From: Thermodesulfobacteriota bacterium
GTDB taxonomy: Bacteria > Desulfobacterota > Anaeroferrophillalia > Anaeroferrophillales > Tharpellaceae
Length of the DNA: 64,000 nucleotides
Assembly: GCA_024763535.1 (NCBI GenBank)
Contig: JANTFH010000005.1
Coordinates: 4,612-68,611 of the forward strand
Direction: 5' to 3'
Part shown: positions 20,816 to 38,093 of the stretch, in pieces
Layout: each line of letters starts with the position of its first letter
Numbering within the stretch: position 1 is the stretch's first letter
Notes under the pieces: generated by a model
The model's database searches: none
Seen by the model: the letters and a program-made list of their open reading frames with translations, nothing else
What the model was told of the DNA's origin: nothing
Made by a program: the position numbers and the translations under genes

Positions 20816-20895
20816 AAACAGCTCTAAATTTAACGAAATTTTTTAATACAATTTATATCCCAAAGTTTAAATAGATTCCGCAGGGAGAGAGATAG

Positions 20896-22479
20896 ATGAA
20901 TGAACTAGGTTTTCCGATAATCAGCCTTGTGACCTTTTTTCCGATCTTCGGGGCGTTGATCCTGATGTTTATCGATAAAGAGGCCAAAGATACGCTCCGG
21001 GGCACTGCCATGGTTTTTGCCATGATTGAGTTCTTTATCTCTCTGCCGATCATCTTCGCATTTCAAAGCGGTACTGCAGATATGCAGTTCGTGGAGCGCT
21101 ACACCTGGATTAAGAGTGCCGGTTTAAGTTATTATATCGGTCTGGACGGTATCAGTCTCTGGATCTTTATGCTGACCACCTTCTTAACTCCGATCTGTGT
21201 TTTGTGTTCCTGGAACTATATTCAGAAACGGGTCAAAGAGTTCATGATCTGCCTCCTGTTACTGGAGACGGCCATGCTGGGGGCTCTGGTCTCCCTGGAC
21301 CTGATCCTTTTCTATATCTTCTGGGAACTGATGCTGATTCCGATGTATTTCCTGATCGGAGTCTGGGGTGGAGACAATCGGATCTATGCCGCAGTTAAGT
21401 TTTTTATCTATACCGCCGCCGGTTCGGTCTTCATGCTGCTCTCGATATTCTTTCTCTACTATTACAACCATAAGGTCACCGGCGTCTATACCTTTGATCT
21501 GCTGGAACTTTACAAACTTAATATTCCGGTATCGACCCAGTTCTGGCTCTGTCTGACCTTTTTTGTCTCGTTCGCCATTAAGGTACCGATGTTTCCGCTC
21601 CACACCTGGCTGCCGGATGCTCATGTCCAGGCTCCGACGGCCGGTAGTGTAATTTTGGCAGGTGTTCTCTTGAAAATGGGAACTTACGGTTTCATGCGCT
21701 TTGCGATTCCGCTCTTTCCCTACGCCAGTCATCAGTTTACACCGGTTATTGCGACATTAGCGGTAATCGGCATCATCTACGGGGCTCTGGTAGCCCTGAT
21801 CCAGCCTGATATGAAGAAACTGGTTGCCTATTCCAGTGTCAGTCACTTGGGTTATGTCATGCTCGGTATCTTTGCTTTCAATATGCAGGGGGTTGAGGGT
21901 GGTCTCTATCAGATGCTCAACCATGGTATCAGTACCGGCGCTCTCTTCCTGATCGTCGGTATGCTTTATGAGCGTCGTCATACCCGGATGATCAAGGATT
22001 TCGGTGGTATCGCCAAGGTGATGCCGGTCTATGCCACCTTTTTCATGATTATGACCCTGTCATCAATTGCGGTTCCCGGAACCAACGGTTTCGTCGGCGA
22101 GTTTATGATCCTGGTCGGAGCTTTCCGCTCAATTCCGATGCATGCTGTTTTTGCCACTTCCGGGGCCATCCTCGGGGCGCTTTATATGCTCTGGATGTAT
22201 CAGCGGGTGATGTTTCAGCCCCTCGATAAAGAGGAAAACAAGGTCTTGAAAGATCTCAATGCCCGGGAAATTGTGACTCTGCTGCCGCTGGCGATACTGG
22301 TTTTCGTTATGGGTTTCTTTCCTGGTTATTTCATCAATAAGATGGACGCTTCATGTCAGCACTTCCTGAAAAACTATAATCAGCAGGTGGCCATGTATGA
22401 ACAGCAGGTTGAAGATGGCAGTGCCGCCAAACTGGCCGCGGTGATGAGTGACAATAATTTAGAGAAGAAGATCGACTGA
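20896..22479 (+). CDS. nuoM: NADH-quinone oxidoreductase subunit M
   Basis: 527 aa, NuoM/ND4 family (WLPDAHVQAPTAGSVILAGVLLKMGTYG). Ends in a TGA stop. Confidence 0.95.
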   Translation: MNELGFPIISLVTFFPIFGALILMFIDKEAKDTLRGTAMVFAMIEFFISLPIIFAFQSGTADMQFVERYTWIKSAGLSYYIGLDGISLWIFMLTTFLTPICVLCSWNYIQKRVKEFMICLLLLETAMLGALVSLDLILFYIFWELMLIPMYFLIGVWGGDNRIYAAVKFFIYTAAGSVFMLLSIFFLYYYNHKVTGVYTFDLLELYKLNIPVSTQFWLCLTFFVSFAIKVPMFPLHTWLPDAHVQAPTAGSVILAGVLLKMGTYGFMRFAIPLFPYASHQFTPVIATLAVIGIIYGALVALIQPDMKKLVAYSSVSHLGYVMLGIFAFNMQGVEGGLYQMLNHGISTGALFLIVGMLYERRHTRMIKDFGGIAKVMPVYATFFMIMTLSSIAVPGTNGFVGEFMILVGAFRSIPMHAVFATSGAILGALYMLWMYQRVMFQPLDKEENKVLKDLNAREIVTLLPLAILVFVMGFFPGYFINKMDASCQHFLKNYNQQVAMYEQQVEDGSAAKLAAVMSDNNLEKKID

Positions 22480-22622
22480 TTTAATCTTTATTTAAGGTGG
22501 AACCCGGCCCGAACTGTTTATATTAAGTTTCCGGAAATCCGGGATACATGCCGGCTGGCTTATCCCAGACTGTGCAATATACAAATTATTATATTTTTTA
22601 AGATAAATTTTGGAGGAGAGTG

Positions 22623-24092
22623 ATGGAAATGCTGGATTTTGTTGTCCCGGCACTCAATCTTAAGGCAATTCTGCCGCAGTTGATCCTGGCCTTGACGGCA
22701 TTGACCGTACTATTGGTCGATGTCTTTGCCAAAGGCAAGGGTAAAACCTCCCTGGGAGCCTTGTCACTGGCGGGGGTGGTTGCCGCTTTAATTACTCTCA
22801 TGCTGTCTCGCGGCAGTCATGAATCGGCCTATGCCGGTATGCTGATGGCGGATGGCTTCGGTTTTTTCATCACCCTGATTGTCTGTATCGTTACCTTTTT
22901 GACGATTCTTGCTTCGATCAATTATGAACGTATCTGTCCTGATATCAAGGCCGGTGAGTTTTATTGCCTGATGCTGTTTGCCGCTTTCGGGATGTCCTTT
23001 ATGGGGAATGCCGGCAACCTGATTATGATCTTCGTGGCTCTGGAAACCATGTCTATCTCGATCTATGTTCTGGCCGGCTTCAAGACCTCTGATGCGAAAT
23101 CGATCGAGTCGGCATTGAAATATTTTCTCCTGGGAGCCTTTGCCTCGGGATTTCTGCTCTTCGGATTTGCCCTGGTTTACGGTGCCGCCGGAACCCTGGA
23201 TATCGTCAAACTCGGTGCCTTCTTCACTGCTAACCCCGACTCACTGCATCATCCTATGGTTTTAGGCGGTATGGCATTGATGACGGTGGGCTTCGGCTTT
23301 AAGGTTGCCATGTTCCCGTTTCACATGTGGACTCCGGATGTCTATGAAGGGGCTCCGACCGTGGTTACCGGATTTATGGCCACCGGGGTCAAGGCCGCAG
23401 CCTTTGCCGCGTTGGTAAGGGTATTTTTCGTTGGTTTTGCGCCGCTGCAGGCCGACTGGACGACGATCATGTGGGTAGCGGCGTTGCTGACGATGACCAT
23501 CGGCAACCTGGTTGCGATCTCACAGACCAATATCAAACGGATGCTGGCCTATTCCAGTATCGCTCATGCCGGTTACCTTCTGGTCGGCTTTGTGGTCGGT
23601 ACCGAACTGGCCCGTTCCGGTATGCTCTTTTATCTTTTAGCCTACGCCTTTGCCAATATCGGAGCTTTTGCGGTAATCTCCGCCATGGGTAAAGATGGAG
23701 AAGAGTATACCGAGCTTAATGATTTCTCCGGGGCCGGTTTTAAATATCCCTTCCTGGGTCTGATGATGAGCATCTTTATCTTCTCCATGGCCGGGATTCC
23801 TCCGGCGGCGGGTTTTATGGGTAAATTCTTCATCTTCTCGGAAGCGATTAAATCCGGATATATCTGGCTGGCGATCTTCGGAGTCATCAACAGCGTAATC
23901 TCGCTTTACTACTATCTTGGGGTTATCGTGCGCATGTACTTCAAGGAGCCCGAGCGCGAAATCACAATCATGGCTCCGGCCGGAACCATGATTGCCGCTC
24001 TCTCGATTGCCGCTTTCGCGGTTCTGCAGATGGGAATCTTTCCCTCCTATATCTGGGATCTGGCAAGAGAGTCGGTGAAGATGATTATGTAG
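22623..24092 (+). CDS. nuoN: NADH-quinone oxidoreductase subunit N
   Basis: 490 aa, NuoN/ND2 family. GGAGGAGAG ribosome-binding site before ATG 22623. Confidence 0.95.
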   Translation: MEMLDFVVPALNLKAILPQLILALTALTVLLVDVFAKGKGKTSLGALSLAGVVAALITLMLSRGSHESAYAGMLMADGFGFFITLIVCIVTFLTILASINYERICPDIKAGEFYCLMLFAAFGMSFMGNAGNLIMIFVALETMSISIYVLAGFKTSDAKSIESALKYFLLGAFASGFLLFGFALVYGAAGTLDIVKLGAFFTANPDSLHHPMVLGGMALMTVGFGFKVAMFPFHMWTPDVYEGAPTVVTGFMATGVKAAAFAALVRVFFVGFAPLQADWTTIMWVAALLTMTIGNLVAISQTNIKRMLAYSSIAHAGYLLVGFVVGTELARSGMLFYLLAYAFANIGAFAVISAMGKDGEEYTELNDFSGAGFKYPFLGLMMSIFIFSMAGIPPAAGFMGKFFIFSEAIKSGYIWLAIFGVINSVISLYYYLGVIVRMYFKEPEREITIMAPAGTMIAALSIAAFAVLQMGIFPSYIWDLARESVKMIM

Positions 24093-24195: not shown

Positions 24196-24939
24196 TTATC
24201 CCAGGTAGGCTTTATGGATCTCCGGGTTTTGCAGAAGTTGCGCGGCATCGCCGGAGAGGATGATCTCGCCGGTTTCGAGGAGATAGCCGCGATGGGCAAA
24301 ATCGAGGGCGAGTTTGGCATTCTGTTCAATCAGGAGAATGGTCATGCCGTCCTCATTTAGTCTTTTCAGGGCCCTGAACATATCATACATCAAGAGCGGC
24401 GCCAGGCCCATGGAGGGCTCGTCCAGCATCAGGAATGTGCAGCCCGACATAAGGGCCCGGCCGACCGCCAGCATCTGCTGTTCGCCACCGCTTAAGGATT
24501 CGCTGCGTTGATTACGGCGTTCCGCAAGGCGGGGGAAAAGTTCAAAAACATGGTCGTAATCATGGTTTAAATCATCCGTTTTGGGGCGTGAAAAAGTGGC
24601 CAGGGTGAGGTTTTCCGTAACCGTTAGATTGCCGAATATATGGCGGCCTTCCGGGGCCAGAGCGCAATGGAGATTGCGGACAACGTCATGGGCTGCGGTT
24701 TTCAGGATTGATTGGCCGTTGATCAGAATATCGCCGGCGGAGACCTTGGGTGCTTCCGGCGGAGGCAGCCGGGTGATACTGTGCAGGGTAGTAGTTTTAC
24801 CGGCTCCGTTGGCACCGATAAGCGTGACGATTTCGCCTTTTTCAACGACAAAGCTGATGCCGTGCAGAGCCGTAATATTGCCGTATTTAACTTCCAGATT
24901 ACGGACTTCGAGAAAAGGGGTTTTACCGGAACTGTTCAT
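24196..24939 (-). CDS. livF: Branched-chain amino acid ABC transporter ATP-binding protein (LivF-type)
   Basis: Walker A motif GANGAGKTT, ABC signature LSGGEQQML, Walker B motif LMLDEP. Confidence 0.9.
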   Translation of the reverse strand: MNSSGKTPFLEVRNLEVKYGNITALHGISFVVEKGEIVTLIGANGAGKTTTLHSITRLPPPEAPKVSAGDILINGQSILKTAAHDVVRNLHCALAPEGRHIFGNLTVTENLTLATFSRPKTDDLNHDYDHVFELFPRLAERRNQRSESLSGGEQQMLAVGRALMSGCTFLMLDEPSMGLAPLLMYDMFRALKRLNEDGMTILLIEQNAKLALDFAHRGYLLETGEIILSGDAAQLLQNPEIHKAYLG

Positions 24940-24948
24940 AAATTTCTC

Positions 24949-25716
24949 TTATATTTGGTCATCGCCCAGGTAAGCCTTGATGACTTCATGATTCTGCTGA
25001 ATCTCTTCCGGCGTACCGGTGGCGATCAGGCGTCCAAAATCGATTACCGAGATTCGTGAACAGAGGCTCATAACTACCTTCATCTGATGCTCAATCATCC
25101 AGATAGTAAGATCAAACTGTTCGAAAACCCAGCGAATAAGTTCAATCAGCTCACTTACATCCGTGGCCTGGAGTCCGGCTGCCGGTTCATCTAAGAGCAG
25201 CAGTTTAGGGTCAGCGGAGAGAGCCCGGACAATCTCAACCTTGCGCTGCATACCGTAAGGCAGGTTGGAGGGTTTCTCTTCCGCGTATTTATCGATTTTG
25301 AAAATTTCCAGCAGCTCCATGGCGTGATGGCGTATATCTTTCTCTCGTTTAAGATAGCGAGGCGTTCTAAAGAAGAGGCCACCCAGTCCGTAGCCCAGAT
25401 TATAGTGCTGAGCCACGAGAATATTGTCTAAAACCGACATCTCTTTCCAGAGGCGGATATTCTGAAAGGTTCGGGATATGCCTAAAGCTGAAACCTTGTG
25501 CGGTTTTAAGCCGGCCAGACTCTGACCCTGGAACCGGATATCTCCCTGACTCGGCTGATAATAGCCGCTGACGATGTTGAATACCGTGGTTTTCCCGGCT
25601 CCGTTCGGGCCGATCAGGCCGACCAGTTCCCGCTCGTCAAGAGACAGATTTAGTTCGGAAACGGCGCAGAGGCCACTGAACAGCTGGGTCAGATCTTTTA
25701 TTTCGAGTAAGGACAT
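24949..25716 (-). CDS. livG: Branched-chain amino acid ABC transporter ATP-binding protein (LivG-type)
   Basis: Walker A motif GPNGAGKTT, LLLDEP, ABC signature. Confidence 0.9.
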   Translation of the reverse strand: MSLLEIKDLTQLFSGLCAVSELNLSLDERELVGLIGPNGAGKTTVFNIVSGYYQPSQGDIRFQGQSLAGLKPHKVSALGISRTFQNIRLWKEMSVLDNILVAQHYNLGYGLGGLFFRTPRYLKREKDIRHHAMELLEIFKIDKYAEEKPSNLPYGMQRKVEIVRALSADPKLLLLDEPAAGLQATDVSELIELIRWVFEQFDLTIWMIEHQMKVVMSLCSRISVIDFGRLIATGTPEEIQQNHEVIKAYLGDDQI

Positions 25717-25730
25717 ACTTAAATCGTCAG

Positions 25731-26744
25731 CTACTTAAATTTGTAGAACTTTTTCAGTTTAGGGAAGATATCACTCAATTCGCGATGGCCCATGATGCCC
25801 TCCGGGCGGAACTGCATGATAATTATTAAAAGTAGGGGAATGGCTACCCATTTAATGATCTGCAGTGGTCGTAACAATTCCAGTAACAGGGTGAAAATGA
25901 CCGCCGAGAGGATGGATCCGGTGATTGAACCCATGCCTCCGAGATAGACCATAACCAGGGCTTCAGTAGATTTCAGAATATCAAATGATTTTGGATTTAC
26001 GTAACCGACGGCATGGGCGTAGAGTCCCCCGGCAATCCCGGCCAGGCCGGATGAGATCATAAAGGTCACCAGCTTGATGCGGTTGGTGTTGACACTCATA
26101 ATCTCGGCTGCGACTTCGTCCTGGCGGATCGCCTCTACCCCTTTGCCGTAGGTTGAGGTCATATAGCGCCGGATAATGATGACGGTAAGTACCGTAAAGA
26201 CAAAGACCCAGAGTACCATCCAGGGAATCTCGGCACACTCTTCCATTGCGAAGATAACCCGTTTCATACCCATGAATCCACGAGCCCCGCCGATTTTGTC
26301 GATATTAATAATAGCTGTGATAATAATGTAATTGGCGGCAATGGTGATAATTGCCAGATAGTCATCCCGGGTGCGGAAAGAGGGGATCGCGATTAAGAGA
26401 CCGGTAAGGGCTGACGCAATCCCGCCGCAGATCAGGACAAATGGAAAGCCGTAGGCCGCCAGTTCCGGCGGCAGCAGCGGTGCCCCGAAGATTTTACTTT
26501 TAGTAAAAAGAGCCACCGAGAGTACGGAGGAGACGTAGGCTCCCACCGCAATGAATCCGGCATGACCGCAGGAAAATTCTCCCATGTTTCCGTTGACCAG
26601 ATTAAGGCTGGTTGAGGTGATGATATTGATGCCCATGAACAGGATGATCGTCTGGATGTAGAGATCGATAACCTCGAAGTAGGCCAACCCCATCAACAGG
26701 GACAGCAGGAGAAAAAGCAGTATGGGGACGCAGAGACGTTTCAT
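25731..26744 (-). CDS. livM: Branched-chain amino acid ABC transporter permease (LivM-type)
   Basis: Polytopic permease. Its start overlaps the livH stop. Confidence 0.85.
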   Translation of the reverse strand: MKRLCVPILLFLLLSLLMGLAYFEVIDLYIQTIILFMGINIITSTSLNLVNGNMGEFSCGHAGFIAVGAYVSSVLSVALFTKSKIFGAPLLPPELAAYGFPFVLICGGIASALTGLLIAIPSFRTRDDYLAIITIAANYIIITAIINIDKIGGARGFMGMKRVIFAMEECAEIPWMVLWVFVFTVLTVIIIRRYMTSTYGKGVEAIRQDEVAAEIMSVNTNRIKLVTFMISSGLAGIAGGLYAHAVGYVNPKSFDILKSTEALVMVYLGGMGSITGSILSAVIFTLLLELLRPLQIIKWVAIPLLLIIIMQFRPEGIMGHRELSDIFPKLKKFYKFK

Positions 26745-27667
26745 CAGATTTTTGTGGTATGGGGGACGCCGAAGAGCCCGGTGGGTTTGAGAGTGAGAAT
26801 GACAAGAAGGATCGAAAAGGCGATCAGGTCACGGTAGGATGAGGGGAAAACCGCAACCACCGAGATCTCGATGATGCCGAGGATGAAGCCGCCGACAAAA
26901 GCCCCGCGAATATCGCCGATACCACCGACAACGGCAGCGATAAAAGCTTTCCAGCCGATTGACATACCCATATAGGGATCCAGAATCGGGTAGGAGAGGG
27001 CAAACAGAATTCCCGCCAGCCCGGCCATGGCTGAGCCAAGCACAAACGTAAACACAATGACGACGTCCACCGGAATACCCATCAGGGGGATGGCGAATTT
27101 ATCATAGGAGATGGCCCGCATGGCCATGCCTACTTTGGTTCTGGTGATGATGAAGTGGAGGACGATAAAACTTAAAATAGAGGTTAAGATAACTCCGACT
27201 TTCAGGTTGGTAACATAGATAGCGCCGAATTTATAGACGACCTTGTCGATCATCTCGGGGAATTTTTTACGGCTCGCACCGAGCAGTAGTAAATTCCCGT
27301 TTTCCAGAACCAGCCCGGCCATTAAAGCCGTAATCACAACATAGAGACGATGGGCTCCCTTACGTCGCAGGGGACGGTAGGCAATACGTTCGATCGTGAC
27401 CCCGACCAGTGAAGTGAGCACCATGGTCAGGGGAATGGTTAAAGCCAGAACCGCCCATCCCGGCATGACCTGGGGCATGCCGTATTTACCGAGCAGGGCA
27501 CTGGAGATAAAAAAGGCGATATAGGCCCCGACCATGACAATATCGCCGTGAGCGAAGTTGATCAGTCTTAAAACCCCGTAAACCAGGGTGTAACCTAAAG
27601 CAATCAGGGAGTAAAAACTTCCCCACTGCATGGCATTGAGCAGATTTTGTAAAAAGGTATCAAGCAC
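26744..27667 (-). CDS. livH: Branched-chain amino acid ABC transporter permease (LivH-type). The start is uncertain: GTG at 27667 or TTG at 27748.
   Basis: Contains LDTFLQNLLNAMQWGSFYSLIALGYTLVYGVLRLINFAHG, which matches the conserved LivH N-terminus. No clear Shine-Dalgarno sequence at either candidate start. Confidence 0.8.
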   Translation of the reverse strand: MLDTFLQNLLNAMQWGSFYSLIALGYTLVYGVLRLINFAHGDIVMVGAYIAFFISSALLGKYGMPQVMPGWAVLALTIPLTMVLTSLVGVTIERIAYRPLRRKGAHRLYVVITALMAGLVLENGNLLLLGASRKKFPEMIDKVVYKFGAIYVTNLKVGVILTSILSFIVLHFIITRTKVGMAMRAISYDKFAIPLMGIPVDVVIVFTFVLGSAMAGLAGILFALSYPILDPYMGMSIGWKAFIAAVVGGIGDIRGAFVGGFILGIIEISVVAVFPSSYRDLIAFSILLVILTLKPTGLFGVPHTTKI

Positions 27668-27748
27668 GACTTTGTAATGATCTAATAAGCAGTTGAAAAG
27701 TTGGCATGGATTGGTCGGCAACCGGTTAAGCGTGGTTTTAAAAAGCAA

Positions 27749-27796
27749 GGGGGCACAGAGGCCGGCAGAAAACTTTTCTGTGAGCTCTGTGCTCCC
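27749..27796 (-). promoter_or_regulatory. Long imperfect hairpin in the livK-livH intergenic region (a candidate partial terminator or mRNA-stability element)
   Basis: gggggcacagag (27749-27760) pairs with ctctgtgctccc (27785-27796) in 11 of 12 positions. A nested 7-bp hairpin cagaaaa/ttttctg lies inside. Confidence 0.4.
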
Positions 27797-27821
27797 TGCT
27801 TATGTTGCTGAATAGATGTGG

Positions 27822-28988
27822 TTAGGGACATACCGACTTGGTGAAAACAAATTCCCCTTTTTCATTGATTCGGACGACCACGGCACATTTGATCGGGTCA
27901 CCTTGATCATCAAATCTCATGTTGCCGGTGATGCCGGCAAAGCTCTTAATATTGGCCATTGACTCCCGCAGAGCTTTGCGGTCTTTACGTAATTTACCGC
28001 TCAATTTGCCGCCTTCCTGAAGCGCCTGAAGAACCAGCCGGGTAGCATCCCAGGTCAAGGCCGCAACATCATCCGGGATATAACCATACTTTTTATTGTA
28101 GCGGTCGATAAATTTTTTGGTTGCGCCTTTAGCTCCGGCTGCGGCGTAGTGAGTTGAGAAATATTGGCCGATGCAGTCATCGCCGCAGAGATTCATAAGT
28201 TCAGCTGAACCCCAGGCGTCAGAGCCCATAAACGGCCCCTTCCAGCCCAGATCATGGGCCTGTTTGACCGTCAGAGCGACTTCATTATAGTTGTTGGGGA
28301 GAAAGATAAAATCCGGTTTAGAAGCAATAATTTTGGTCAGCTGAGCGCTGAAATCCTGATCTTTGTCGCCGTAGCTTTCAAAAGCGACTACCGAACCTTT
28401 ACCGTTCTTCTTTTCAAAGTCGGCTTTGAAAATCTCAGCCAGACCTTTGCTGTAATCGTTTGCCAGGGCATAAAGGACAGCTGCTTTTTTGGCCTTGAAC
28501 TGTTCCATAGCGAAATCTACGGCCACCGGCCCCTGGAAGGGGTCAAGAAAAGCGGCGCGGAAGACGTAAGGGCGATCTAAAGTAGTATCGGGGTTGGTGG
28601 ACCAGGGTGAGACCATAACGGTCTGGTTTAAGTCAGCAATTTCGCCGGCCGGAACCGCCTGTTTGCTGGAGTTCGGACCGATAATTGCCAGAACCTTGTT
28701 ACGGTCGATCAGTTTCTGGGCTACGGCTACCGCAGATTCGGCTTTCGATTCATTATCTTCATAGATGAATTCCAGTTTATATTTCTTGTCACCGACCTTT
28801 AATCCTCCCTGACCGTTAATATCGGCTTTCAGCATTTCGGCGGCAAATTTTGAGGACTCACCGACCTTTGGGATCTCGCCGGTCAAGGGGATGTTGAAAC
28901 CGATTTTGATGGTGTCGGCGGCCAGGCCATTACCGAACATCATGCAGGATAGAAACAGGGCTAGAACCAAAGTTGAAACTTTTTTCAT
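27822..28988 (-). CDS. livK: Branched-chain amino acid ABC transporter substrate-binding protein (LivK/LivJ-type)
   Basis: Signal peptide followed by a periplasmic-binding-protein type I sequence. The ATG at 28988 (MKKVSTL) has a GGAGGA ribosome-binding site. Confidence 0.85.
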   Translation of the reverse strand: MKKVSTLVLALFLSCMMFGNGLAADTIKIGFNIPLTGEIPKVGESSKFAAEMLKADINGQGGLKVGDKKYKLEFIYEDNESKAESAVAVAQKLIDRNKVLAIIGPNSSKQAVPAGEIADLNQTVMVSPWSTNPDTTLDRPYVFRAAFLDPFQGPVAVDFAMEQFKAKKAAVLYALANDYSKGLAEIFKADFEKKNGKGSVVAFESYGDKDQDFSAQLTKIIASKPDFIFLPNNYNEVALTVKQAHDLGWKGPFMGSDAWGSAELMNLCGDDCIGQYFSTHYAAAGAKGATKKFIDRYNKKYGYIPDDVAALTWDATRLVLQALQEGGKLSGKLRKDRKALRESMANIKSFAGITGNMRFDDQGDPIKCAVVVRINEKGEFVFTKSVCP

Positions 28989-29187
28989 GACGGTCTCCTC
29001 CAAGAGTAGTTAAATGTTTATTTTTTTAAGGCCATTCGCCTTAACAGGTTGGGGCCCGATTCGTCAAGTTTTTAATCAATTTACGGCAAATTTTTTGCCC
29101 ATAAAACGCTTGCTCTTTTTTTCACGGTCTGTTAGTTGCTGATTTTAGGGGCAGTTGAAAAAATAGAAATCCGGATGAGGTATCATT

Positions 29188-30950: not shown

Positions 30951-31715
30951 ATGGAGGTTTTATTCAAGGTGCGCAAAATTGCCTGTCAGAATTTTAAGGG
31001 CGGTACCGGTAAGACAACAACCGTTATCTCTCTGGCCCATTGCCTGGCGGTTGCCGGCAGGAAGGTGCTGGTCGTCGATCTTGATGCTCAGGGGAATATT
31101 GCCGAGAGTTTCGGCCTGGAGAACGATAATTCCCTTTACGACCTTCTGGTCGACGGTAAGCCTCTGGCTGATTGCCTGGTTGAGGTGCGTGAGAATCTTT
31201 ACTGTCTGCCTTCGGATCGGACGGTTGCGGCCTGTGAGACCGTTCTCGTAACCCGGCCGCGTCGGGAAGAGGCCTTAAAAAGAGCTCTGGCTGACATTGA
31301 TCAGGTGATTCCCGACATCAGTGTGGTTCTGCTCGACTGCTCCCCCTCACTTTCGATCCTGAGCCAGAATGCCCTGGTGTTTGTCGATGAACTGCTTTTG
31401 CCGGTGAGTATGGACTATCTGGCCATGGTCGGGGCCGGTCAGGTTTTTGAAAATTTGCAGATGATTGAAGAGTATTTTGAGAAAGAGGTTAAGGTCTGCG
31501 GTATTCTGCCTACCTTTTTTGATAAGCGGGTTAATGTCAGCAAAGATGTTTTGGCGGCCCTTAATGAGCGTTATGGTGATCTGGTGCTGCCGCCGGTACG
31601 AATTGATACCAAGATCCAGCAGGCATCCAGCCGCCAACAGACTATAGTTGAGTTCGGAGGTAAATCCCGGGCTCGTGAAGATTATCAGAATGTTTATAAG
31701 GAGTTGTTTGGATGA
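30951..31715 (+). CDS. ParA/MinD-family P-loop ATPase. The start could instead be GTG at 30969.
   Basis: Deviant Walker A motif KGGTGKTT, then VVDLDAQGN. The stop overlaps the next gene (ATGA). Confidence 0.8.
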   Translation: MEVLFKVRKIACQNFKGGTGKTTTVISLAHCLAVAGRKVLVVDLDAQGNIAESFGLENDNSLYDLLVDGKPLADCLVEVRENLYCLPSDRTVAACETVLVTRPRREEALKRALADIDQVIPDISVVLLDCSPSLSILSQNALVFVDELLLPVSMDYLAMVGAGQVFENLQMIEEYFEKEVKVCGILPTFFDKRVNVSKDVLAALNERYGDLVLPPVRIDTKIQQASSRQQTIVEFGGKSRAREDYQNVYKELFG

Positions 31716-32707
31716 CAACTAAAAAAGAGAAAAAGGGTGTAAAAAAGGCCAAATCAGCAAAAAGTGGCAGCCGGCCGACCAAAACGGTAAAACCGTCAGG
31801 TACCGGGGCTGTACGCGAGAAGATGGTTGCCAAAACTGCAAAAGTGAGTGAAGTCGATAAGGAGAAAATGGCCGCTTTTTTCAGTGCCGCAGGGTTGAAG
31901 GATGTGAACCCTGAAGTGAAACCGGATGCGGGAACTCCAGCCCGGACAGCCGCTCCGCTGCCGGACGCCAAAGTTGTGGCGGAAACGAAACCGGAAACCC
32001 CGGTTCAGGAAACCGAAAAGCCGGTTGTCAAGACCCCGGAGCCCGAGGTCGCAGTAGCAAAACCGCAGCCGGAGAAAGATATCTTGGAACCCGAAACCGA
32101 AAACCTGAAGGCAGAAAAAGGCGAAATTGAAATGACCCCCAATAAAACCGTAAGCAGCAATACAAAAGAGTCTAAATCAGGCAGTTTCAGCACGTTGCCT
32201 ATGTTTGTTATCCTCCTCTGCCTGGCGGCCTTCTGGTTCTATTATATCTCGGCTGCTCCACAGCCGGAAACGGCTGCCGTCCAGGTTAAAAAGAGCCAGA
32301 CAAAAATTCAGTCGCTGGAGGCTCAAGTCAAAGTTTTACAGGCAAAAGTGGCGGCCCTGCAGGCGAGTCTGGCGGCTCTGCAGAAACCGGCAGCTGAGGT
32401 TAAAGTTAAAGAATCCGCCGCTAAGCCTGCGGTGAAGGATTCATCCTTTGATAAAGCTCCGATTCCCTTCTGGCGGACGATGCATCGCAACCACACTGAA
32501 CAGTTGCAGAAAGCGTCGCCGAAACCGGTGCTTAAAGCGGCCCCGGTGAAATCCGAGAAGGTCGATTCCTTCAGTAAAGCTCCGGTTCCGTTCTGGCGTA
32601 AAGCCCCGGCTGATAAAAATGGAGTTAAAGTTGAGAAGGACTTGGCCGCAGACAAGAACCATGACTCCTCATTTGACAAGGCTCCGATTCCATTTTGGGA
32701 AAAATAG
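31712..32707 (+). CDS. ParA-coupled membrane protein. It has a Lys-rich N-terminal tail, a Pro/Glu-rich linker, one transmembrane helix, a coiled-coil and three C-terminal [SD]SF[DS]KAP[IV]PFW repeats.
   Basis: Translationally coupled to parA. Repeats: SSFDKAPIPFWR, DSFSKAPVPFWR, SSFDKAPIPFWEK. Transmembrane segment FSTLPMFVILLCLAAFWFYYI. Coiled-coil IQSLEAQVKVLQAKVAALQASLAALQ. Confidence 0.6.
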   Translation: MTTKKEKKGVKKAKSAKSGSRPTKTVKPSGTGAVREKMVAKTAKVSEVDKEKMAAFFSAAGLKDVNPEVKPDAGTPARTAAPLPDAKVVAETKPETPVQETEKPVVKTPEPEVAVAKPQPEKDILEPETENLKAEKGEIEMTPNKTVSSNTKESKSGSFSTLPMFVILLCLAAFWFYYISAAPQPETAAVQVKKSQTKIQSLEAQVKVLQAKVAALQASLAALQKPAAEVKVKESAAKPAVKDSSFDKAPIPFWRTMHRNHTEQLQKASPKPVLKAAPVKSEKVDSFSKAPVPFWRKAPADKNGVKVEKDLAADKNHDSSFDKAPIPFWEK

Positions 32708-32740
32708 AAAAGAGAACTGTTGCAGGGTAAAAACAAAAAA

Positions 32741-32772
32741 GCAACGGCTGCAATCGGCCGTTGCTTTTTTTA
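32741..32772 (+). terminator. Intrinsic terminator after the parA-partner operon
   Basis: Stem gcaacggc/gccgttgc with an 8-nt loop and an 8-nt T-run. An A-run precedes it. Confidence 0.7.
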
Positions 32773-33040: not shown

Positions 33041-33880
33041 TTATTGAAAAAAAGTGAGCAGTTTATGGCGCAGGGGTAAGCTTTTTTCGAGGTTGAAGTT
33101 TATCTGATTAATCCCGGCGAGGGGTGCCAGGCGCATCAGCGAACTGGTGAGAAAGGCTCCGTCGCACAGTTTCAGGTCGTTTACGAAAAGCGGGGTCTCC
33201 TGACACGTGATTCCAGCCTGTTGGGCCCTTTGGAGAATCAGGGCCCGGGTGGTTCCGGGCAGAATGCCGGCGTCAAGAGGCGGGGTCTGCAGATCATTGC
33301 CGCGGATGAGAAAGATATTGGAAAAGGTTCCTTCGCAGAGTTCTTCATTCTGATTAAGAAAAATTCCTTCATCAAAACCCGCGCTTCTGGCATCATTGAG
33401 CCCGTAGCGATTTTCCAGATAATTTAGACTTTTTATTTTGAGCAGGGGGTTTGCGCGGTTTCGTCGCCAGGGTAAAATCAGGGCCTGCATTCCCCGCTGC
33501 CGTTTTTCGATCTCATCAAGCTTGAGCGCAGTGGTTCTGATGATCAGAGACGTCGATGTCATGGCTGAAATCGCTCGGCCGGGGTCGGTCGGACTGCAGA
33601 TCAATTTTATGACGGCACTTTTGTCTAAAAGCTGATTGTTGTGTAAAAGATCCGCTATGATCGTTGTGATTCGGTCGAACTCGTCAGGGATTTTCAGATT
33701 AAGTTGTCTGAGGCCGGAGCGCATCCGTTCAAGGTGCTCCGGCAGCCCGAAGGGTGAGCCGTTATCCGCCCGGATGGTTTCAAACAGGCCTTCGCCGAAG
33801 AGAAACCCAGAATTAAAGGGCGAGATTACGGCCTCGTTTTCGGGGATGAGCGCTCCGTTTATGTAGATCACTGATCTCAT
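33041..33880 (-). CDS. Class IV aminotransferase (PabC-like aminodeoxychorismate lyase / branched-chain amino acid aminotransferase family)
   Basis: N-terminus VIYINGALIPENEAVISPFNSGFLFGEGLFETIRA is characteristic of fold-type IV PLP enzymes. The ATG at 33880 has a GGAGG ribosome-binding site and overlaps the recQ stop. Confidence 0.75.
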   Translation of the reverse strand: MRSVIYINGALIPENEAVISPFNSGFLFGEGLFETIRADNGSPFGLPEHLERMRSGLRQLNLKIPDEFDRITTIIADLLHNNQLLDKSAVIKLICSPTDPGRAISAMTSTSLIIRTTALKLDEIEKRQRGMQALILPWRRNRANPLLKIKSLNYLENRYGLNDARSAGFDEGIFLNQNEELCEGTFSNIFLIRGNDLQTPPLDAGILPGTTRALILQRAQQAGITCQETPLFVNDLKLCDGAFLTSSLMRLAPLAGINQINFNLEKSLPLRHKLLTFFQ

Positions 33881-35781
33881 CTTTGGCCTGCCTCCTTCCG
33901 GCGGCTGTTGGTATTTACGGCTGCGGTTGTTGCGGAGATCGCACAATTTTCATTAAGCTGATGTTCCTTACAGAACTGTTTGATCCGGCGGGTAAAGATC
34001 TCGCCGAAATCCTTAAGTTTCATCTCCCCGACTCCTTTGACCAGGCTGAAGGTTTCGGGGTCTGTCGGTCTCCGGCGGGCCATATCATTAAGTGCCGCAT
34101 CACTGAAGATCAGATAGGGCGGGACTTTGCGGGCGCCGGCCAGTTCATAGCGCAATTTTCGCAGATCTGAAAACAGGGCCGACTCCGCTTCGTTTAAGTT
34201 GTCTTCTCCCTGAGCCGGGGTCTTGATTTGTAAATCAGACTTGATGCGGGTCAGGGTCGGGGTCATTTTACCCTGTAAAAGTCTGCGCCCGTCCGGAGTG
34301 AGTTGCAGAATCTGGTATTCTGCGGTCCGGGTCAGAAAATCCTGACTGATAAGCTGCTCGAGCCAGGTTTTGATCTGGGTAAGACTATCTTTTTTCAGGA
34401 TTCCCCAGGTTGAGAGGCGGTCGTGCTGGTTGGCAAGTATCCGTTGATCTTTTGAACCTTTAAGCACCTGGGCGCTGTAGTTGAGCCCGAAATTTTCACC
34501 CTGCCGCAGAATGCTGGAGAGAATCTTCTGTCCGCAGATTAAGGGATCCTCCACGGCAACCATCTCATTCAGGCAGATATCGCAGTGGTTACAGGGGCCG
34601 TCATCCAGTCTCTGCCCGAAGTAGCTGACCAGGGTCTTATGGCGGCAATTTATGCCGTGGGCATAGCTGGTCATGGCTTTCAGGGAACGGGCCGCCCCGG
34701 TAAAACCTTCCGGGTGAGTTCCGTTCTGGTTCTCATTCAGGGTCTGGTACCAGCGTTTGAGATCGGCATTGTTGTGATAGAGCAGGCATTCGGCAGGTAG
34801 CCCGTCACGTCCGGCCCGACCGCTCTCCTGCTGGTAGTTTTCCAGAGCCTTGGGCATACCGCTATGGATAACGAAACGGATATTCGATTTATCGACGCCC
34901 ATGCCGAAAGCGACGGTGGCAACCATGATTCCGGATTCATGATTGATGAAGGCCTCCTGACTCTTTTTGCGTTCAGCATCGGCCATGCCGGCATGATAGG
35001 GCCAGACAGCCAGCCCCTTTTCCCGCAGACGGTCCGTGATCCTCTCCACCTCGCGGCGGCTTTGACAGTAGATGATGCCCGATTCCTGCTGGTGGTGTTC
35101 TAAAGCCTCCGTAATCTGATCAAAATGACGGGCGCTCTTGCGCTTGACCTTATAAATTAAATTGGGGCGGTCGAAAGAGCCGACCAGAAAGGCCGGATCT
35201 TTAAGCCCCAGCTGGATGGCAATATCCTGCTGGACTTCAGGGGTTGCCGTAGCTGTGTAGGCGTGAATTGAGACCTTGGGAAAGTGGCGGTGCAGATCTT
35301 TCAACTGGCGGTAATCCGGGCGGAAATCGTGCCCCCATTGACTGATGCAGTGAGCCTCATCAATGGCTATAAAACTTATATCCAGGGATTTCAGGAATCT
35401 TAAACTGCTCTCCTGAGCCAGTTTCTCCGGGGAGAGATAGAGCAGGTTCAGGCGCTTTTCTCTGAGTTGTTTTGTAACCTGGAGTTTTTCCTCGGTCGTC
35501 ATGGAGCTGTTGATAGTGGCCGCAGTCACCCCGTTTAAGTTGAGACTGTCGACCTGATCTTTCATCAGCGCGATCAGAGGTGAGACCACCAGGGCCAGGC
35601 GCTTGTGGACCAGGGCGGGGATTTGAAAGCAGGCCGATTTGCCGCCGCCGGTGGGCAGTACCAGCAGTGAATCCCGGCCCTCAAGAACCAGACCAATTGC
35701 CTCTTTCTGCAAAGGGAGGAAATTACTGTGCCCCCAGTACTGTTTCAGGACCGTTGCCGGGGTTGGGTGCGGGTTTGTCAT
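33877..35781 (-). CDS. recQ: ATP-dependent DNA helicase RecQ
   Basis: Q-motif and helicase motifs (LVLPTGGGKSACFQIPAL, DEAHCISQWGHDFRP), a zinc-binding RQC region and a C-terminal HRDC-like region. Confidence 0.9.
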   Translation of the reverse strand: MTNPHPTPATVLKQYWGHSNFLPLQKEAIGLVLEGRDSLLVLPTGGGKSACFQIPALVHKRLALVVSPLIALMKDQVDSLNLNGVTAATINSSMTTEEKLQVTKQLREKRLNLLYLSPEKLAQESSLRFLKSLDISFIAIDEAHCISQWGHDFRPDYRQLKDLHRHFPKVSIHAYTATATPEVQQDIAIQLGLKDPAFLVGSFDRPNLIYKVKRKSARHFDQITEALEHHQQESGIIYCQSRREVERITDRLREKGLAVWPYHAGMADAERKKSQEAFINHESGIMVATVAFGMGVDKSNIRFVIHSGMPKALENYQQESGRAGRDGLPAECLLYHNNADLKRWYQTLNENQNGTHPEGFTGAARSLKAMTSYAHGINCRHKTLVSYFGQRLDDGPCNHCDICLNEMVAVEDPLICGQKILSSILRQGENFGLNYSAQVLKGSKDQRILANQHDRLSTWGILKKDSLTQIKTWLEQLISQDFLTRTAEYQILQLTPDGRRLLQGKMTPTLTRIKSDLQIKTPAQGEDNLNEAESALFSDLRKLRYELAGARKVPPYLIFSDAALNDMARRRPTDPETFSLVKGVGEMKLKDFGEIFTRRIKQFCKEHQLNENCAISATTAAVNTNSRRKEAGQR

Positions 35782-35795
35782 GGTTTGAGGCCGGG

Positions 35796-38093
35796 CTAAG
35801 TCATGGGCAGAAAAATTGAGAAGGTCGAGCCCTGATTGATAACGCTTTGGACTTCGATGCTGCCGTTGTTGGCATCTATCAGCGTATGCACGATCGAAAG
35901 CCCTAAACCGCTGCCTTTATTCGGACCCCGGGTGGTAAAGAAGGGGTCGAAAATGGTTGGTAGATGTTCCGGACTTATGCCGCAGCCGCTATCTTTTATA
36001 TCAATTTTTATCCGCTTCTGTTCCGTTATGGAGGTGGCATTGATCGTGATTATGCCGCCTTCCGGCATGGCCATCTGAGCGTTGATCAGGAGGTTGACGA
36101 ATATCTGATCAAGTTGTTGCGGGTCTACCAAAAGGTTTGGGAGATTCTCCGGAATGTTGAGGTTGAAAGTGATGTTGGCAAAACCCTGACGGTGGTTGAC
36201 GGCCTCAACCGATTGTTCCACCACACTTTGCAGAGTGACCGATTTTGTCTGGGCTTTCTGCGGCCGGCCGTAAGCCAGCAGGTCTCTGGTGATACGGGAA
36301 ATTTTGTCGACTTTGCCGAGCATGCTGTTGTAACGTTTCAGATTGGTCTCGTCGGTCTTACCGTTCCTTTCCGCTTTGGCTCTTAAAATCTGCAGTTGAC
36401 CGGAGATTACAGTCAGGGGATTGTTGATCTCATGGGCGGCTCCGGCGGCCAGACGGCCGACCGTTGCCAGGCGATGGGAGAGCAGCAGGTCGTGATACAT
36501 CGCTTCACTCTGCCGGTTCAGCTCGGTGATCGATTCAGCCTGGCCCGAGAGCTGTTCGCTCATCTGGTAGCGTTCGATCAGTTCACTTATGCCGTCGGCA
36601 AAACGGGCCAGAGCTTCCAGCAGGATAGTTCTGCCGACACCGCAGCGCTCCAGCTGCTGGCAATCGATAAAAAGCTGTCCGTGAATTACCGGGTTGATGG
36701 TCAGCTGTTTACCGCCGATGGGAACGATAAGAATGGAAGGATACTCCTTTAAGGGAGTAATCCGGCTGTTACGCAGCAAAGCCTCAGGTTTTTTCAGGAG
36801 CAGGCGTTTCAGTACAGTTAAGACTCCGGCCCGGCTGGGAATGGTGTCGGCTTTTCCCAGGAGCGGTAGATCCTGCAGTAGATCCTGGTCGGAAAAGGTT
36901 TTCCCTACGAAACGTCCCAGCCAGCAGGCTGAACCGGTTTCGGTCGGCCCCAGGCCGCAGCAGGCAAAACCCATCCGGCTCCGGCTCAGTTCCAGAGTCT
37001 GGGTGATGATCTCATTGATCAGATTACTTCTTTTGGGTCGGGTTGCGATTCTCTGATTTAAGGCGGCCAGACCCTCCAGCAGACGGTTTTTCAGTTCCAG
37101 TTCGGCCAGCGTCTTCTCCCGCTCGAGATTGAGCCGCCCCAGTTCCCGATTGGCTTTGTGAATCGCCGCAAAATAGAGCTCATTGTCGACCGTGTGCAGG
37201 CAGTTGCCGAATTCATGGAGACGATTGTCAACGGTGTGGTAGATGTCGACCAGATCGTCAGGATCAATGCGGAAAAAAATTCTTAATGATTCAACCGTAC
37301 GGGCATACGGGGTTGAAGTTGAGTAGTCAAGTTCATGGTTGACAAAATAGCTCGAACCCAGATTGTAAAGGTTGCAGATGGCATCGGCCAGGCGAATCAG
37401 GAGCGGCAGGGAGGGAACTTCCTGCCGGGGTTCCACCGGGGGTTGATGGTGGAGCCAGACCGCCTCGATTATCGGTTCGGGGAAATTCCAGGCTTCGGTT
37501 ACCCATTTACCGATCAGATGGTGCGGCGCTCCGAGAATCTCTTTCTCCAGTTCCAGCTGCGGCCACTGGGGCTGATCGTCGGGATTGAAACCTTTAAGCC
37601 GGGAGATAAATTGCTTGTATTCCTTTTCCAGGCGGTGATAAGCTATGAGTTTACCGACATCATGCAACAGACCGGCGACGAAGGCCTCTTCCGGCTTCGG
37701 ATAGTTCAGCTTGCGGGCCAGGGCTTCGCTGGTGTAGGCACAGGCGACGCAGTGCTGCCAGAAAGCGGCCATCTCCTGTTCCCGTTTTTTTCCGGCATGG
37801 GTGAAGGTGTCAAAGATGGTTACACTTAGAGCCAGGTTGCGAACCTGATTTTTCCCCAGCAGGGAGATGGCGTGGCTGAGATCCTTGACTTCGGTGCTCA
37901 GGGCAAAGGTCGGGGAGTTGATCAGGGTCAGTATACGGGCCGAGAGCACCGGATCCTGCCTGATGAGATCGGCCATTTGGTGGAAGTCGGCGAGATCGTC
38001 AAAACAGGTATTGATAACTTGACTGGCAAGTGATGGTAACGGAGGAATGTCTTCAAGGTTGCCGAGTCGTTCGATAATATCGTCGTTCTGCAA
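35796..38093 (-). CDS. Sensor histidine kinase with an N-terminal HDOD domain
   Basis: HDOD-like N-terminus (IPPLPSLASQVINTCFDD...ISLLGKNQVRNLALS), HisKA H-box AHEINNPLTVISGQLQIL, and a C-terminal HATPase G-box GSGLGLS. Confidence 0.85.
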   Translation of the reverse strand: MQNDDIIERLGNLEDIPPLPSLASQVINTCFDDLADFHQMADLIRQDPVLSARILTLINSPTFALSTEVKDLSHAISLLGKNQVRNLALSVTIFDTFTHAGKKREQEMAAFWQHCVACAYTSEALARKLNYPKPEEAFVAGLLHDVGKLIAYHRLEKEYKQFISRLKGFNPDDQPQWPQLELEKEILGAPHHLIGKWVTEAWNFPEPIIEAVWLHHQPPVEPRQEVPSLPLLIRLADAICNLYNLGSSYFVNHELDYSTSTPYARTVESLRIFFRIDPDDLVDIYHTVDNRLHEFGNCLHTVDNELYFAAIHKANRELGRLNLEREKTLAELELKNRLLEGLAALNQRIATRPKRSNLINEIITQTLELSRSRMGFACCGLGPTETGSACWLGRFVGKTFSDQDLLQDLPLLGKADTIPSRAGVLTVLKRLLLKKPEALLRNSRITPLKEYPSILIVPIGGKQLTINPVIHGQLFIDCQQLERCGVGRTILLEALARFADGISELIERYQMSEQLSGQAESITELNRQSEAMYHDLLLSHRLATVGRLAAGAAHEINNPLTVISGQLQILRAKAERNGKTDETNLKRYNSMLGKVDKISRITRDLLAYGRPQKAQTKSVTLQSVVEQSVEAVNHRQGFANITFNLNIPENLPNLLVDPQQLDQIFVNLLINAQMAMPEGGIITINATSITEQKRIKIDIKDSGCGISPEHLPTIFDPFFTTRGPNKGSGLGLSIVHTLIDANNGSIEVQSVINQGSTFSIFLPMT

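Follow-up and report, generated by a model that had tools for sequence, protein, structure and literature searches.

The cargos that ParA/MinD ATPases are known to place are DNA, organelles of the cytoplasm, arrays of chemoreceptors and regulators of division. The described systems closest to the locus reported here are the type Ib partition cassettes, such as ParF-ParG of TP228 and delta-omega of pSM19035, whose centromere-binding proteins (ParG, omega) have an N-terminal tail that stimulates the ATPase. Other ParA-like ATPases work with partners that are not ParB proteins, as in McdA-McdB of carboxysomes, PpfA-TlpT and ParC-ParP of chemoreceptor arrays, and PomZ-PomX/PomY of the division site. 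Further factors, namely TipN, HubP and PopZ, act on ParA, and Noc tethers DNA to the membrane. We analysed a stretch of 64,000 nucleotides (nt), hereafter called the window, from a Thermodesulfobacteriota bacterium (assembly GCA_024763535.1, contig JANTFH010000005.1), in which a parA gene overlaps the gene of a membrane protein of 331 amino acids (aa), its partner. On balance, we lean towards the view that the two genes form a self-contained ParA positioning module in which the membrane protein replaces the usual DNA-binding partner. A module for DNA segregation thus seems to have taken on the placement of some envelope component.

Like the type Ib cassettes, the pair is a coupled two-gene parA-partner operon, with a ParA of about 250 residues that has a deviant Walker A motif and a partner that carries a short basic and hydrophobic motif near its N-terminus. 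Furthermore, the closest relatives of its ParA (54-60% identity) belong to such cassettes on mobile elements, the partners of which share the N-terminal motif. Unlike them, the pair sits at a stable chromosomal site rather than on a mobile element, and its partner has no DNA-binding domain but a transmembrane helix, a coiled coil and predicted periplasmic repeats. With the orphan adaptor systems of carboxysomes, chemoreceptor arrays and the division site, the pair has in common a ParA-like ATPase with a non-ParB partner, and by analogy the basic N-terminal region of that partner would be expected to stimulate the ATPase. This likeness is one of function and architecture only, as Pfam and NCBIfam searches revealed no sequence relationship of the partner to McdB, TlpT, ParP or PomX/PomY. 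In contrast with those adaptors, the partner is predicted to be an integral, bitopic membrane protein whose conserved end lies in the periplasm. The features of the pair, all on the plus strand, are as follows.

30953..30957, plus strand: GGAGG Shine-Dalgarno sequence of parA (GGAGG 6-11 nt before the GTG in 12 of 13 orthologous loci of the PFW subfamily)
30969..31715, plus strand: ParA/MinD-type ATPase, 248 aa from GTG (Pfam, solved structures and orthologues; start placed from the orthologues)
30996..31016, plus strand: deviant Walker A motif KGGTGKT with the signature lysine (read in the sequence; invariant in a 15-sequence ParA alignment)
31698..31703, plus strand: AAGGAG Shine-Dalgarno sequence of the partner gene, within the 3' end of parA and 8 nt before the partner ATG
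31712..31715, plus strand: ATGA stop/start overlap (the ParA TGA, 31713-31715, overlaps the partner ATG, 31712-31714)
31712..32707, plus strand: predicted bitopic membrane partner, 331 aa, new family (no curated family at cutoff)
31817..31897, plus strand: candidate ParA-binding motif, aa 36-62, REKMVAKTAKVSEVDKEKMAAFFSAAGL (conservation, AlphaFold2 helix and hhalign)
31898..32131, plus strand: disordered spacer rich in Pro, Glu and Lys, aa 63-140 (14 Glu, 13 Pro, 10 Lys; predicted local distance difference test (pLDDT) <50; length and sequence variable among orthologues)
32115..32134, plus strand: 'EKGEIEM' island in the spacer, a Shine-Dalgarno-like AAAGG(T/C)GA followed by an ATG (Met141) (conservation)
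32201..32257, plus strand: single predicted transmembrane helix, aa 164-182 (Kyte-Doolittle mean 2.12 over 19 aa; no second segment)
32264..32398, plus strand: leucine-zipper coiled coil, aa 185-229, predicted periplasmic (heptads with V/I at a and Leu at d)
32438..32473, plus strand: PFW repeat 1, DSSFDKAPIPFW (SFDKAPIPFW at aa 245-254; S245, F246, P250, F253 and W254 invariant)
32561..32596, plus strand: PFW repeat 2, VDSFSKAPVPFW (SFSKAPVPFW at aa 286-295; at least 90% conserved)
32663..32698, plus strand: PFW repeat 3, DSSFDKAPIPFW, two residues before the C-terminus (SFDKAPIPFW at aa 320-329; at least 90% conserved)

The original prediction, made from the letters of the window alone, had described a ParA stop codon overlapping the start of a 331-aa frame, and the ATGA at 31712-31715 confirms it. 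The basic N-terminal tail, the Pro/Glu-rich spacer, the single transmembrane helix, the heptad coiled coil and the three repeats were likewise all found where it had placed them. It had also called the partner a novel protein and not a ParB, and both statements stand. The partner reaches no curated cutoff in Pfam or NCBIfam, and belongs to no family there with an unrelated role. It has no ParB, helix-turn-helix (HTH) or other family match in these databases, where nothing related to ParB was detected at E up to 1, and the GERRxRA box, searched as GE[RK]Rx[RK]A, is absent from every frame of the window. We found no description of such a ParA/membrane-partner pair in the literature.

The upstream gene of the pair (open reading frame (ORF) 30951-31715, plus strand) codes for a ParA/MinD-type ATPase that is a bona fide member of the ParA family. 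It matches the Pfam families AAA_31 (E 2.9e-42, 145 bits for a cutoff of 27) and CbiA (E 4.1e-22, 78.9 bits for a cutoff of 25.4), as well as phrog_164, 'ParA-like partition protein' (E 2.3e-46). Its nearest solved structures are ParA/Soj proteins, i.e. 4pfs/5ihp, Myxococcus xanthus ParA (8ray) and Thermus thermophilus Soj (1wcv). The best-scoring are 4pfs and 5ihp (E about 3e-38), which we take to be the ParA-like protein MSMEG_3743 of Mycobacterium smegmatis. The latter, like Rv1708 and the orphan ParA-like PldP of Corynebacterium, is a distant relative, with roughly 40% identity to the ParA of the pair in structure alignments; these proteins differ in having no coupled gene for a bitopic partner and in coming from unrelated lineages. 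PldP nevertheless provides a precedent for the action of a ParA on a membrane component, since it is reported in a 2025 preprint (10.1101/2025.07.02.662783) to influence the dynamics of the membrane protein TatA.

The ATPase does not qualify as a MinD, as the MinD models gave 30 bits where 213 are required and 50 where 202 are required, and neither minC nor minE was found near the locus. A MinD-like C-terminal membrane-targeting helix was also ruled out, the end of the protein ('...EDYQNVYKELFG') aligning with the ordinary last helix of Soj/ParA. A role in a defence system was discarded after a PADLOC search that gave P-loop-only matches. The PLSDB plasmid collection contains no ParA above about 36% identity to that of the pair. 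All ParA orthologues start with 'VRK/MRKIACQNFKGG' (V/M-RKIAC) and have a GGAGG 6-11 nt before the GTG; the real start is therefore probably the GTG at 30969 (248 aa) rather than the ATG at 30951. The latter is an in-frame upstream codon lying inside the GGAGG of the window (ATGGAGG). Counted from this ATG, the KGGTGKT motif corresponds to residues 16-22.

Two basic residues of ParA were looked at for non-specific DNA binding. R193 is invariant in the 15-sequence alignment, and we take it to be the equivalent of R189 of Bacillus subtilis Soj. K221 aligns with chain residue R219 of 8ray, which was taken as R238 of M. xanthus ParA by counting with an assumed offset of 19. The R238E substitution in M. 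xanthus ParA abolishes non-specific DNA binding (PMC12462528). The positions with which ParA proteins contact DNA non-specifically, those of Soj R189 and of Soj R218 or M. xanthus ParA R238, are thus occupied by basic residues. The ParA of the pair would therefore be a nucleoid-binding ParA, and because these residues are kept the nucleoid is the likely scaffold.

Homologues of the partner are rare. A search among 5.8 billion sequence clusters returned 42 of them, and a profile search of 1.84 billion representative proteins yielded about 17 true partner clusters, the other matches being to the coiled coil only. All partner clusters come from uncultured Tharpellota or deep Desulfobacterota, under the names of 'Candidatus Tharpella', 'Deltaproteobacteria' or Thermodesulfobacteriota metagenome-assembled genomes. 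The Tharpellota, known from hydrothermal sediments, branch deeply and are related to the Desulfobacterota. One copy of the locus lies on a 1.5-kilobase contig (L010, JAYEOJ010000711.1) of a genome labelled Bacteroidota, with a ParA about 86% identical to those of the Tharpellota-type loci; the label most likely reflects faulty binning and not a genuinely wider taxonomic range.

The original prediction had proposed as a check that homologues should always be coupled to ParA. In the genome collection, 16 loci were found, and all 14 with upstream DNA have a ParA 83-93% identical to that of the window directly upstream of the partner. The sequence (A/G)AGGAGTTGTT followed by the ATGA overlap (-4 nt) is kept in 14 of 14 loci of this PFW subfamily, which indicates translational coupling of parA and the partner gene. 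In a sister subfamily described below, ParA overlaps the partner gene by 4 nt, as judged from the called gene coordinates, in 5 of 5 loci. The partner was never found without ParA in the informative loci, in agreement with the expectation.

The conserved parts of the partner are its N-terminal motif, its transmembrane helix, the leucines of its heptads and its three repeats. The invariant residues are K50, K52, M53, A54, A55, F56, F57, L168, W175, L209, L216 and the core of repeat 1, and the heptad leucines L202, L209, L216 and L220 are conserved. The AlphaFold2 model of the partner alone, based on a 24-sequence alignment, has a mean pLDDT of 56 and a predicted template modelling score of 0.22, and is useful for secondary structure only. 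It contains helices at aa 50-59, 161-181, 185-229 and 253-267, and the rest is disordered.

The original prediction had likened the Lys-rich N-terminal tail to ParA-activating peptides. The tail is indeed basic (aa 1-48 contain 13 Lys, for a net charge of +12), and the N-terminus does carry a motif akin to those of mobile-element partners. What is conserved is however not the very end of this tail, as aa 1-25 are peculiar to a single sub-clade and most relatives show alignment gaps at the Lys-rich stretch (aa 9-22). The conserved element is the motif [KR]KK-[VA][VL]xxxP...DKEKMAAFF, at aa 36-58, which ends in an invariant K-x-K-M-A-A-F-F helix. Its version in the window is REKMVAKTAKVSEVDKEKMAAFF, with A44 at the position of a Pro conserved in most relatives, and the short AlphaFold2 helix at aa 50-59 (KEKMAAFFSA) falls at its end.

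The closest ParAs outside the clade, those with 54-60% identity, are found on mobile elements. Their genes neighbour an HTH_17 excisionase-like gene or genes for a TraG-type coupling protein, an integrase, Phage_rep_O or RelB/ParE. The DNA-binding bodies of their partners are unrelated to one another: some are HTH_36-like (about 170 aa), others ribbon-helix-helix-like (120-185 aa; a likeness judged by eye, as these proteins have no family match), and others have about 400 aa. Yet all these partners start with (R/K)KALKN[IV]PxPD(E/K)(D/E)KLxx[LF]Y. To our knowledge, the motif (R/K)KALKN[IV]PxPDxxKLxx[LF]Y has not been described as a family. In the metagenome contigs labelled L023-L029 and L033-L060, which represent integrative/conjugative-type elements, one motif heads at least three unrelated bodies behind one ParA subfamily. 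The motif is absent from the partner of a more distant, 50%-identity ParA (L030).

Profile-profile comparison with hhalign of the N-termini of the membrane family and of the mobile-element partners aligned KKALAEVP…DKEKMAAFF with RKALKNIP…DEDKLAIFY, at 90% probability and E 1.5e-6. We defined the shared motif as [KR]K-[AV][LV]-x-x-[VIA]-P, 1-9 residues, then [DEKRQ]-K-[ML]-x-x-[FL]-[FY], located close to the N-terminus encoded by the gene directly downstream of a ParA of this subfamily, and the partner of the window is among its bearers. A regular expression matched partner N-termini only, but it was composed after they had been viewed and serves as an illustration. A scan of metagenomes with the degenerate DNA pattern for KALKN[IV]PxPDxxKL, in which ParA was not used, gave 28 loci. 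In all 26 of them with enough upstream DNA, a ParA 49-59% identical to that of the window is encoded directly upstream, and the motif falls in the first 4-12 codons of the open frame. The 28 loci are closely related to each other and represent few independent events. By analogy, the partner motif fits known ParA-binding peptides, two of which stimulate better when juxtaposed than one alone (PMC12462528).

The heptads of the coiled coil, with V/I at a and Leu at d, suggest that the partner forms a parallel dimer through its leucine zipper, as beta-branched residues at a and Leu at d favour parallel dimers in the established coiled-coil rules of Harbury and colleagues. AlphaFold2 predicted the transmembrane helix at aa 161-181 with a pLDDT of about 91, and the coiled coil at aa 185-229 with a pLDDT of 87-96 over most of its length. 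Such a dimer would offer ParA two binding motifs, each on a flexible tether about 100 residues long.

We thus propose the following mechanism for the positioning module. The ATP-bound ParA dimer would bind the nucleoid non-specifically. The partner would be a bitopic inner-membrane protein with its N-terminus inside and its C-terminus in the periplasm, probably as a parallel zipper dimer, each subunit of which would bear [KR]KK-[VA][VL]xxxP...DKEKMAAFF on a roughly 100-residue disordered tether. The two motifs of the dimer would reach nucleoid-bound ParA, bind at its dimer interface and stimulate ATP hydrolysis in the manner of ParB N-terminal peptides. Repeated cycles of binding and release might distribute or centre the partner over the nucleoid, along with whatever its periplasmic part holds. 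That part, composed of the coiled coil and three SFxKAPxPFW short linear motifs on basic Ala/Lys/Pro linkers, would most likely provide multivalent docking sites, with peptidoglycan, an outer-membrane protein or a periplasmic protein as candidate envelope ligands of the PFW motifs. Support for the module comes from the anatomy of the partner, its strict coupling to ParA, the conservation of the motif and its relation to mobile-element tails, and the basic DNA-binding residues of ParA. The original prediction of an adaptor dedicated to a cargo is thus well supported as far as a dedicated ParA partner is concerned, whereas we infer the nucleoid-based positioning and the identity of the cargo, as we do the topology, the dimerisation and the ATPase stimulation.

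Several points weigh against this module. The system has been read from the sequence, in uncultured hosts, and its neighbourhood holds no linked cargo gene and no clue to a cargo. Ratchet-type positioning would also require clustering of the partner. With respect to topology, an inside N-terminus finds no support in the charges on either side of the transmembrane helix (-5 to +2 on the N-side and -1 to +3 on the C-side). The whole C-terminal part is strongly basic in the PFW subfamily (+11 to +36) and about neutral (about 0) in the sister subfamily. The positive-inside rule alone slightly favours the opposite orientation, with a cytoplasmic C-terminus. We nevertheless predict, with considerable confidence, a cytoplasmic N-terminus and a periplasmic C-terminus, because the N-domain is long (83-205 aa across the family), bears 9-36 Lys/Arg and has no signal peptide, because its motif has relatives in the tails of DNA-binding proteins of the cytoplasm and because the gene is translationally coupled to that of a cytoplasmic ATPase.

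The link between the N-terminal motifs is also open to objection, as it depends on a profile-profile comparison for which the N-termini were cut by hand, together with position and context. When 848 ORF segments of the window and of the mobile-element loci were searched with a plain hidden Markov model (HMM) built on the N-terminus of the membrane family, the mobile-element partners came out at E 4-8 only, which is not significant. Lastly, the ParA-coupled loci all come from two related lineages that share long synteny (parA, the partner gene and a convergent Aminotran_4 gene), and for this reason the 19 of 19 cases of coupling do not represent 19 independent events.

The same synteny and the plain HMM result might mean that the two genes are functionally unrelated and adjacent by inheritance, the partner being a generic envelope protein of spanin-like or TolA/TonB-like type with a fortuitous N-terminal similarity. 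Weak matches to Rz-like spanins (phrog_89, E 3.8e-4; TIGR03495, E 0.0055) also point that way. We regard such mere adjacency as highly improbable, as the 4-nt overlap and the internal Shine-Dalgarno sequence are present in every locus despite divergence of the partner to about 30% identity and sometimes a different C-terminus. In addition, its sole invariant cytoplasmic part is the motif that profile-profile comparison ties to ParA partners, and this type of motif follows a related ParA in the 26 of 26 informative loci. Neither holin, endolysin nor o-spanin genes were found near the pair. Membership in the Rz-type i-spanins was rejected, as phrog_89 matches over aa 165-236 only, TIGR03495 gives 17 bits where 92.75 are required, and there is no lysis cassette.

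The transmembrane helix and the zipper also recall proteins of the division machinery. The partner resembles FtsB/FtsL/DivIC, the Rz i-spanin and MapZ in its predicted inside N-terminus, one transmembrane helix and periplasmic leucine zipper, and it has weak profile matches to FtsL, LysB and Rz. It differs from them by a 160-aa cytoplasmic N-domain with a ParA-type motif and by its PFW motifs, which have no counterpart there. A version of the positioning model that names the cargo is that the partner, FtsB/FtsL/DivIC-like or MapZ-like, would recruit divisome or peptidoglycan enzymes through its periplasmic zipper and PFW motifs and be centred over the nucleoid by ParA as PomXY is by PomZ. The transmembrane and zipper part has sub-threshold matches to FtsL (NF049847, E 5e-4), DivIC and ZapB, and one source labels a partner homologue FtsB. 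MapZ is built in the same way, with a disordered N-domain in the cytoplasm, a single transmembrane helix and an extracellular region (PMC7055233, PMC4931243). Placement of the division site by a ParA on the nucleoid has a precedent in PomXYZ (PMC13170346). However, all these matches are far below the curated cutoffs (19.7 bits for 50 with NF049847, 12.5 for 42.45 with TIGR02209 and 15.1 for 28.9 with DivIC), so that membership in FtsB/FtsL/DivIC was rejected, and they involve generic transmembrane and coiled-coil sequence only. No division or cell-wall genes are linked to the pair in its neighbourhood, and the periplasmic end differs in the sister subfamily. A role at the division site is thus improbable as such.

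The three PFW repeats are kept position by position in all full-length orthologues. Their DNA sequences are 72-81% identical, which argues for selection on the peptide and against recent duplication. The motif was not found in other ORFs of the window or of the fetched loci, and we found no papers on a 'PFW motif'. A scan of the genome collection with degenerate PFW patterns matched 88 stretches, among which the relatives make up the 16 loci mentioned above; by a rough estimate, the remaining matches are about what chance would give for patterns of 8-9 residues in 596 gigabases. A link to peptidoglycan like that of Braun's lipoprotein, through the near-terminal Lys of …PFW[RE]K, was discarded, as many orthologues end in …PFWLKD or …PFWLKN, in which the Lys is not terminal. 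A likeness of the repeats to the C-terminal peptide of FtsZ (DIPxFLRK) was also rejected, because of the different spacing and the predicted location of the repeats in the periplasm.

The profile search also revealed a sister subfamily of 23 clusters (P0050, P0053 and P0066 among them), with mostly the same partner architecture but without PFW repeats. Its members have a basic N-terminus, a '…KKALAEVP…K-KMAAFF' motif, a 'NLVKGxKxM' island, the transmembrane helix and the zipper, and their C-terminus consists of a helical '…ADPKTAAMLKKMKAEMEKM…' segment instead of the repeats. The five coupled loci of this subfamily are L018/L019, L020/L021, L022, L031 and L032, and their ParAs are 64-68% identical to that of the window where compared. 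The ParA adjoining one member is named as being from a Candidatus Anaeroferrophillacea bacterium, and in 4 of the 5 loci a convergent Aminotran_4 gene follows the pair. Because this subfamily has no PFW repeats and is nevertheless coupled to ParA, the repeats represent a lineage-specific periplasmic end that is dispensable for the coupling. What always travels with ParA is the set of N-terminal motif, transmembrane helix and zipper. In a further sister-subfamily locus (L017:1-559), the ParA gene lacks its 5' half; residues equivalent to about 124-253 remain, preceded by unrelated sequence, which could represent a pseudogene, a rearrangement or an assembly chimera.

As the subfamilies have nothing in common beyond the ParA motif, the transmembrane helix and the coiled coil, and differ in their periplasmic ends, their conserved function may simply be to keep ParA at the membrane. 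The partner would then be an anchor or a sink that tethers or sequesters ParA at the membrane or a pole, and with it the nucleoid or a ParB-origin complex encoded elsewhere. It would thereby regulate chromosome segregation or the contact between nucleoid and membrane, much as TipN, HubP and PopZ act on ParA and Noc ties DNA to the membrane. Sequence divergence agrees with this proposal. ParA is the most conserved gene of the neighbourhood, with 83-93% identity to the window across loci compared with 61-80% for RecQ, as expected of a core cell-cycle protein. The corresponding values are 62-85% for an HDOD histidine kinase, 48-67% for the Aminotran_4 protein and 30-63% for the partner, the least conserved of all. 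There is no parB gene in the window, and one may lie elsewhere in the genome. Finally, membrane-anchored coiled-coil binders of ParA are established (TipN and HubP; polarity review PMC4085708).

We nonetheless consider an anchor or sink unlikely. The nearest relatives of the ParA form self-contained partition pairs in which the motif-bearing partner is the cargo adaptor, which speaks for a dedicated pair and against an accessory to a ParABS system. The strictness of the translational coupling suggests that the partner is stoichiometric with ParA, and three strongly conserved periplasmic motifs are hard to explain in a purely cytoplasmic sink. TipN of Caulobacter and HubP of Vibrio are indeed similar to the partner in being membrane-anchored, coiled-coil or repeat-rich proteins that contact ParA-family ATPases, but they have no homology to it. 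Both are large hubs at the pole, encoded apart from parA, that bind ParA through large cytoplasmic domains, whereas the partner shares an operon with parA and has, as its sole conserved cytoplasmic feature, a short motif near the N-terminus on a long tether.

Within the otherwise unconserved linker of the partner, a K-G-E/G-x-x-x-M island, mostly encoded by aaAGGTGAnnnnnnnATG, is present in most of 19 loci from both subfamilies. The sites equivalent to Met141 were compared in L001-L014, L017, L019, L020 and L022. In 'EKGExxM-TTT', a Shine-Dalgarno-like sequence precedes by 6-9 nt an ATG that lies about 33 codons before the transmembrane helix. The 'MTT' after the island resembles the true N-terminus of the partner. 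The island of the window itself carries the weaker AAAGGCGA, and the island is absent from L005, L009 and the P0038-P0042 subgroup. Judging from this pattern, Met141 may be an internal start that gives rise to a tail-less isoform of about 191 aa.

A more specific version of the positioning module can be put forward, tentatively. A partition cassette of a mobile element might have been domesticated by the uncultured, deep-branching Desulfobacterota/Tharpellota lineage, and its centromere-binding body replaced with a transmembrane helix, a zipper and docking motifs. The gradient of nucleoid-bound ParA might then relay information on chromosome position through the inner membrane and set the periplasmic site of an envelope structure, such as a cell-wall component, an outer-membrane tether or a division component, and the tail-less isoform from the internal start could tune the number of ParA-binding tails per oligomer.

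A dedicated integral-membrane partner with conserved periplasmic motifs would extend ParA positioning to the cell envelope. The shared N-terminal motif would also represent an example of modular evolution, with one ParA-contact peptide on at least four unrelated bodies (winged-helix, ribbon-helix-helix-like, about 400 aa, and membrane protein), and it could serve as a handle in searches for the partners and cargos of other orphan ParAs. The small size of the system, two genes, makes its reconstitution in Escherichia coli possible even though its hosts are uncultured.

Downstream of the pair lies one further feature.

32735..32770, no strand assigned (reported on the minus strand): hairpin flanked by an A-run and a T-run, terminator-like in both directions (14-bp stem with 6 G-C pairs)

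On the plus strand, TTTTTTT follows the hairpin on its 3' side, and the hairpin ends the two-gene operon. The neighbours of the pair are unrelated housekeeping genes (serA, the Aminotran_4 gene, recQ and the HDOD histidine kinase gene), and the analogy with the positioning of cytochrome-rich membrane complexes drawn in the original prediction finds no support there. Counted from its first TTG, the Aminotran_4 (PabC-like) ORF (33041-33946, minus strand) shares 70 nt with the 3' end of recQ (33877-35781, minus strand), but it probably starts farther downstream. The sister lineage has a Chorismate_bind (PabB-like) gene after the Aminotran_4 gene in place of recQ. The hybrid sensor kinase of 765 aa (35796-38093, minus strand), composed of HDOD, HD and HisKA/HATPase_c domains, adjoins recQ in all related loci, and shorter, paralogous kinase fragments are found upstream of parA in L004, L007 and L011. 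Farther upstream, the window harbours an apparent branched-chain amino-acid ABC transporter cluster (24196-29003, minus strand), of which the Pfam check covered the periplasmic binding protein only. It also contains three consecutive Proton_antipo_M genes (18725-24092, plus strand) for NuoL/M/N-like complex I subunits, in agreement with reports that Tharpellota encode complex I.

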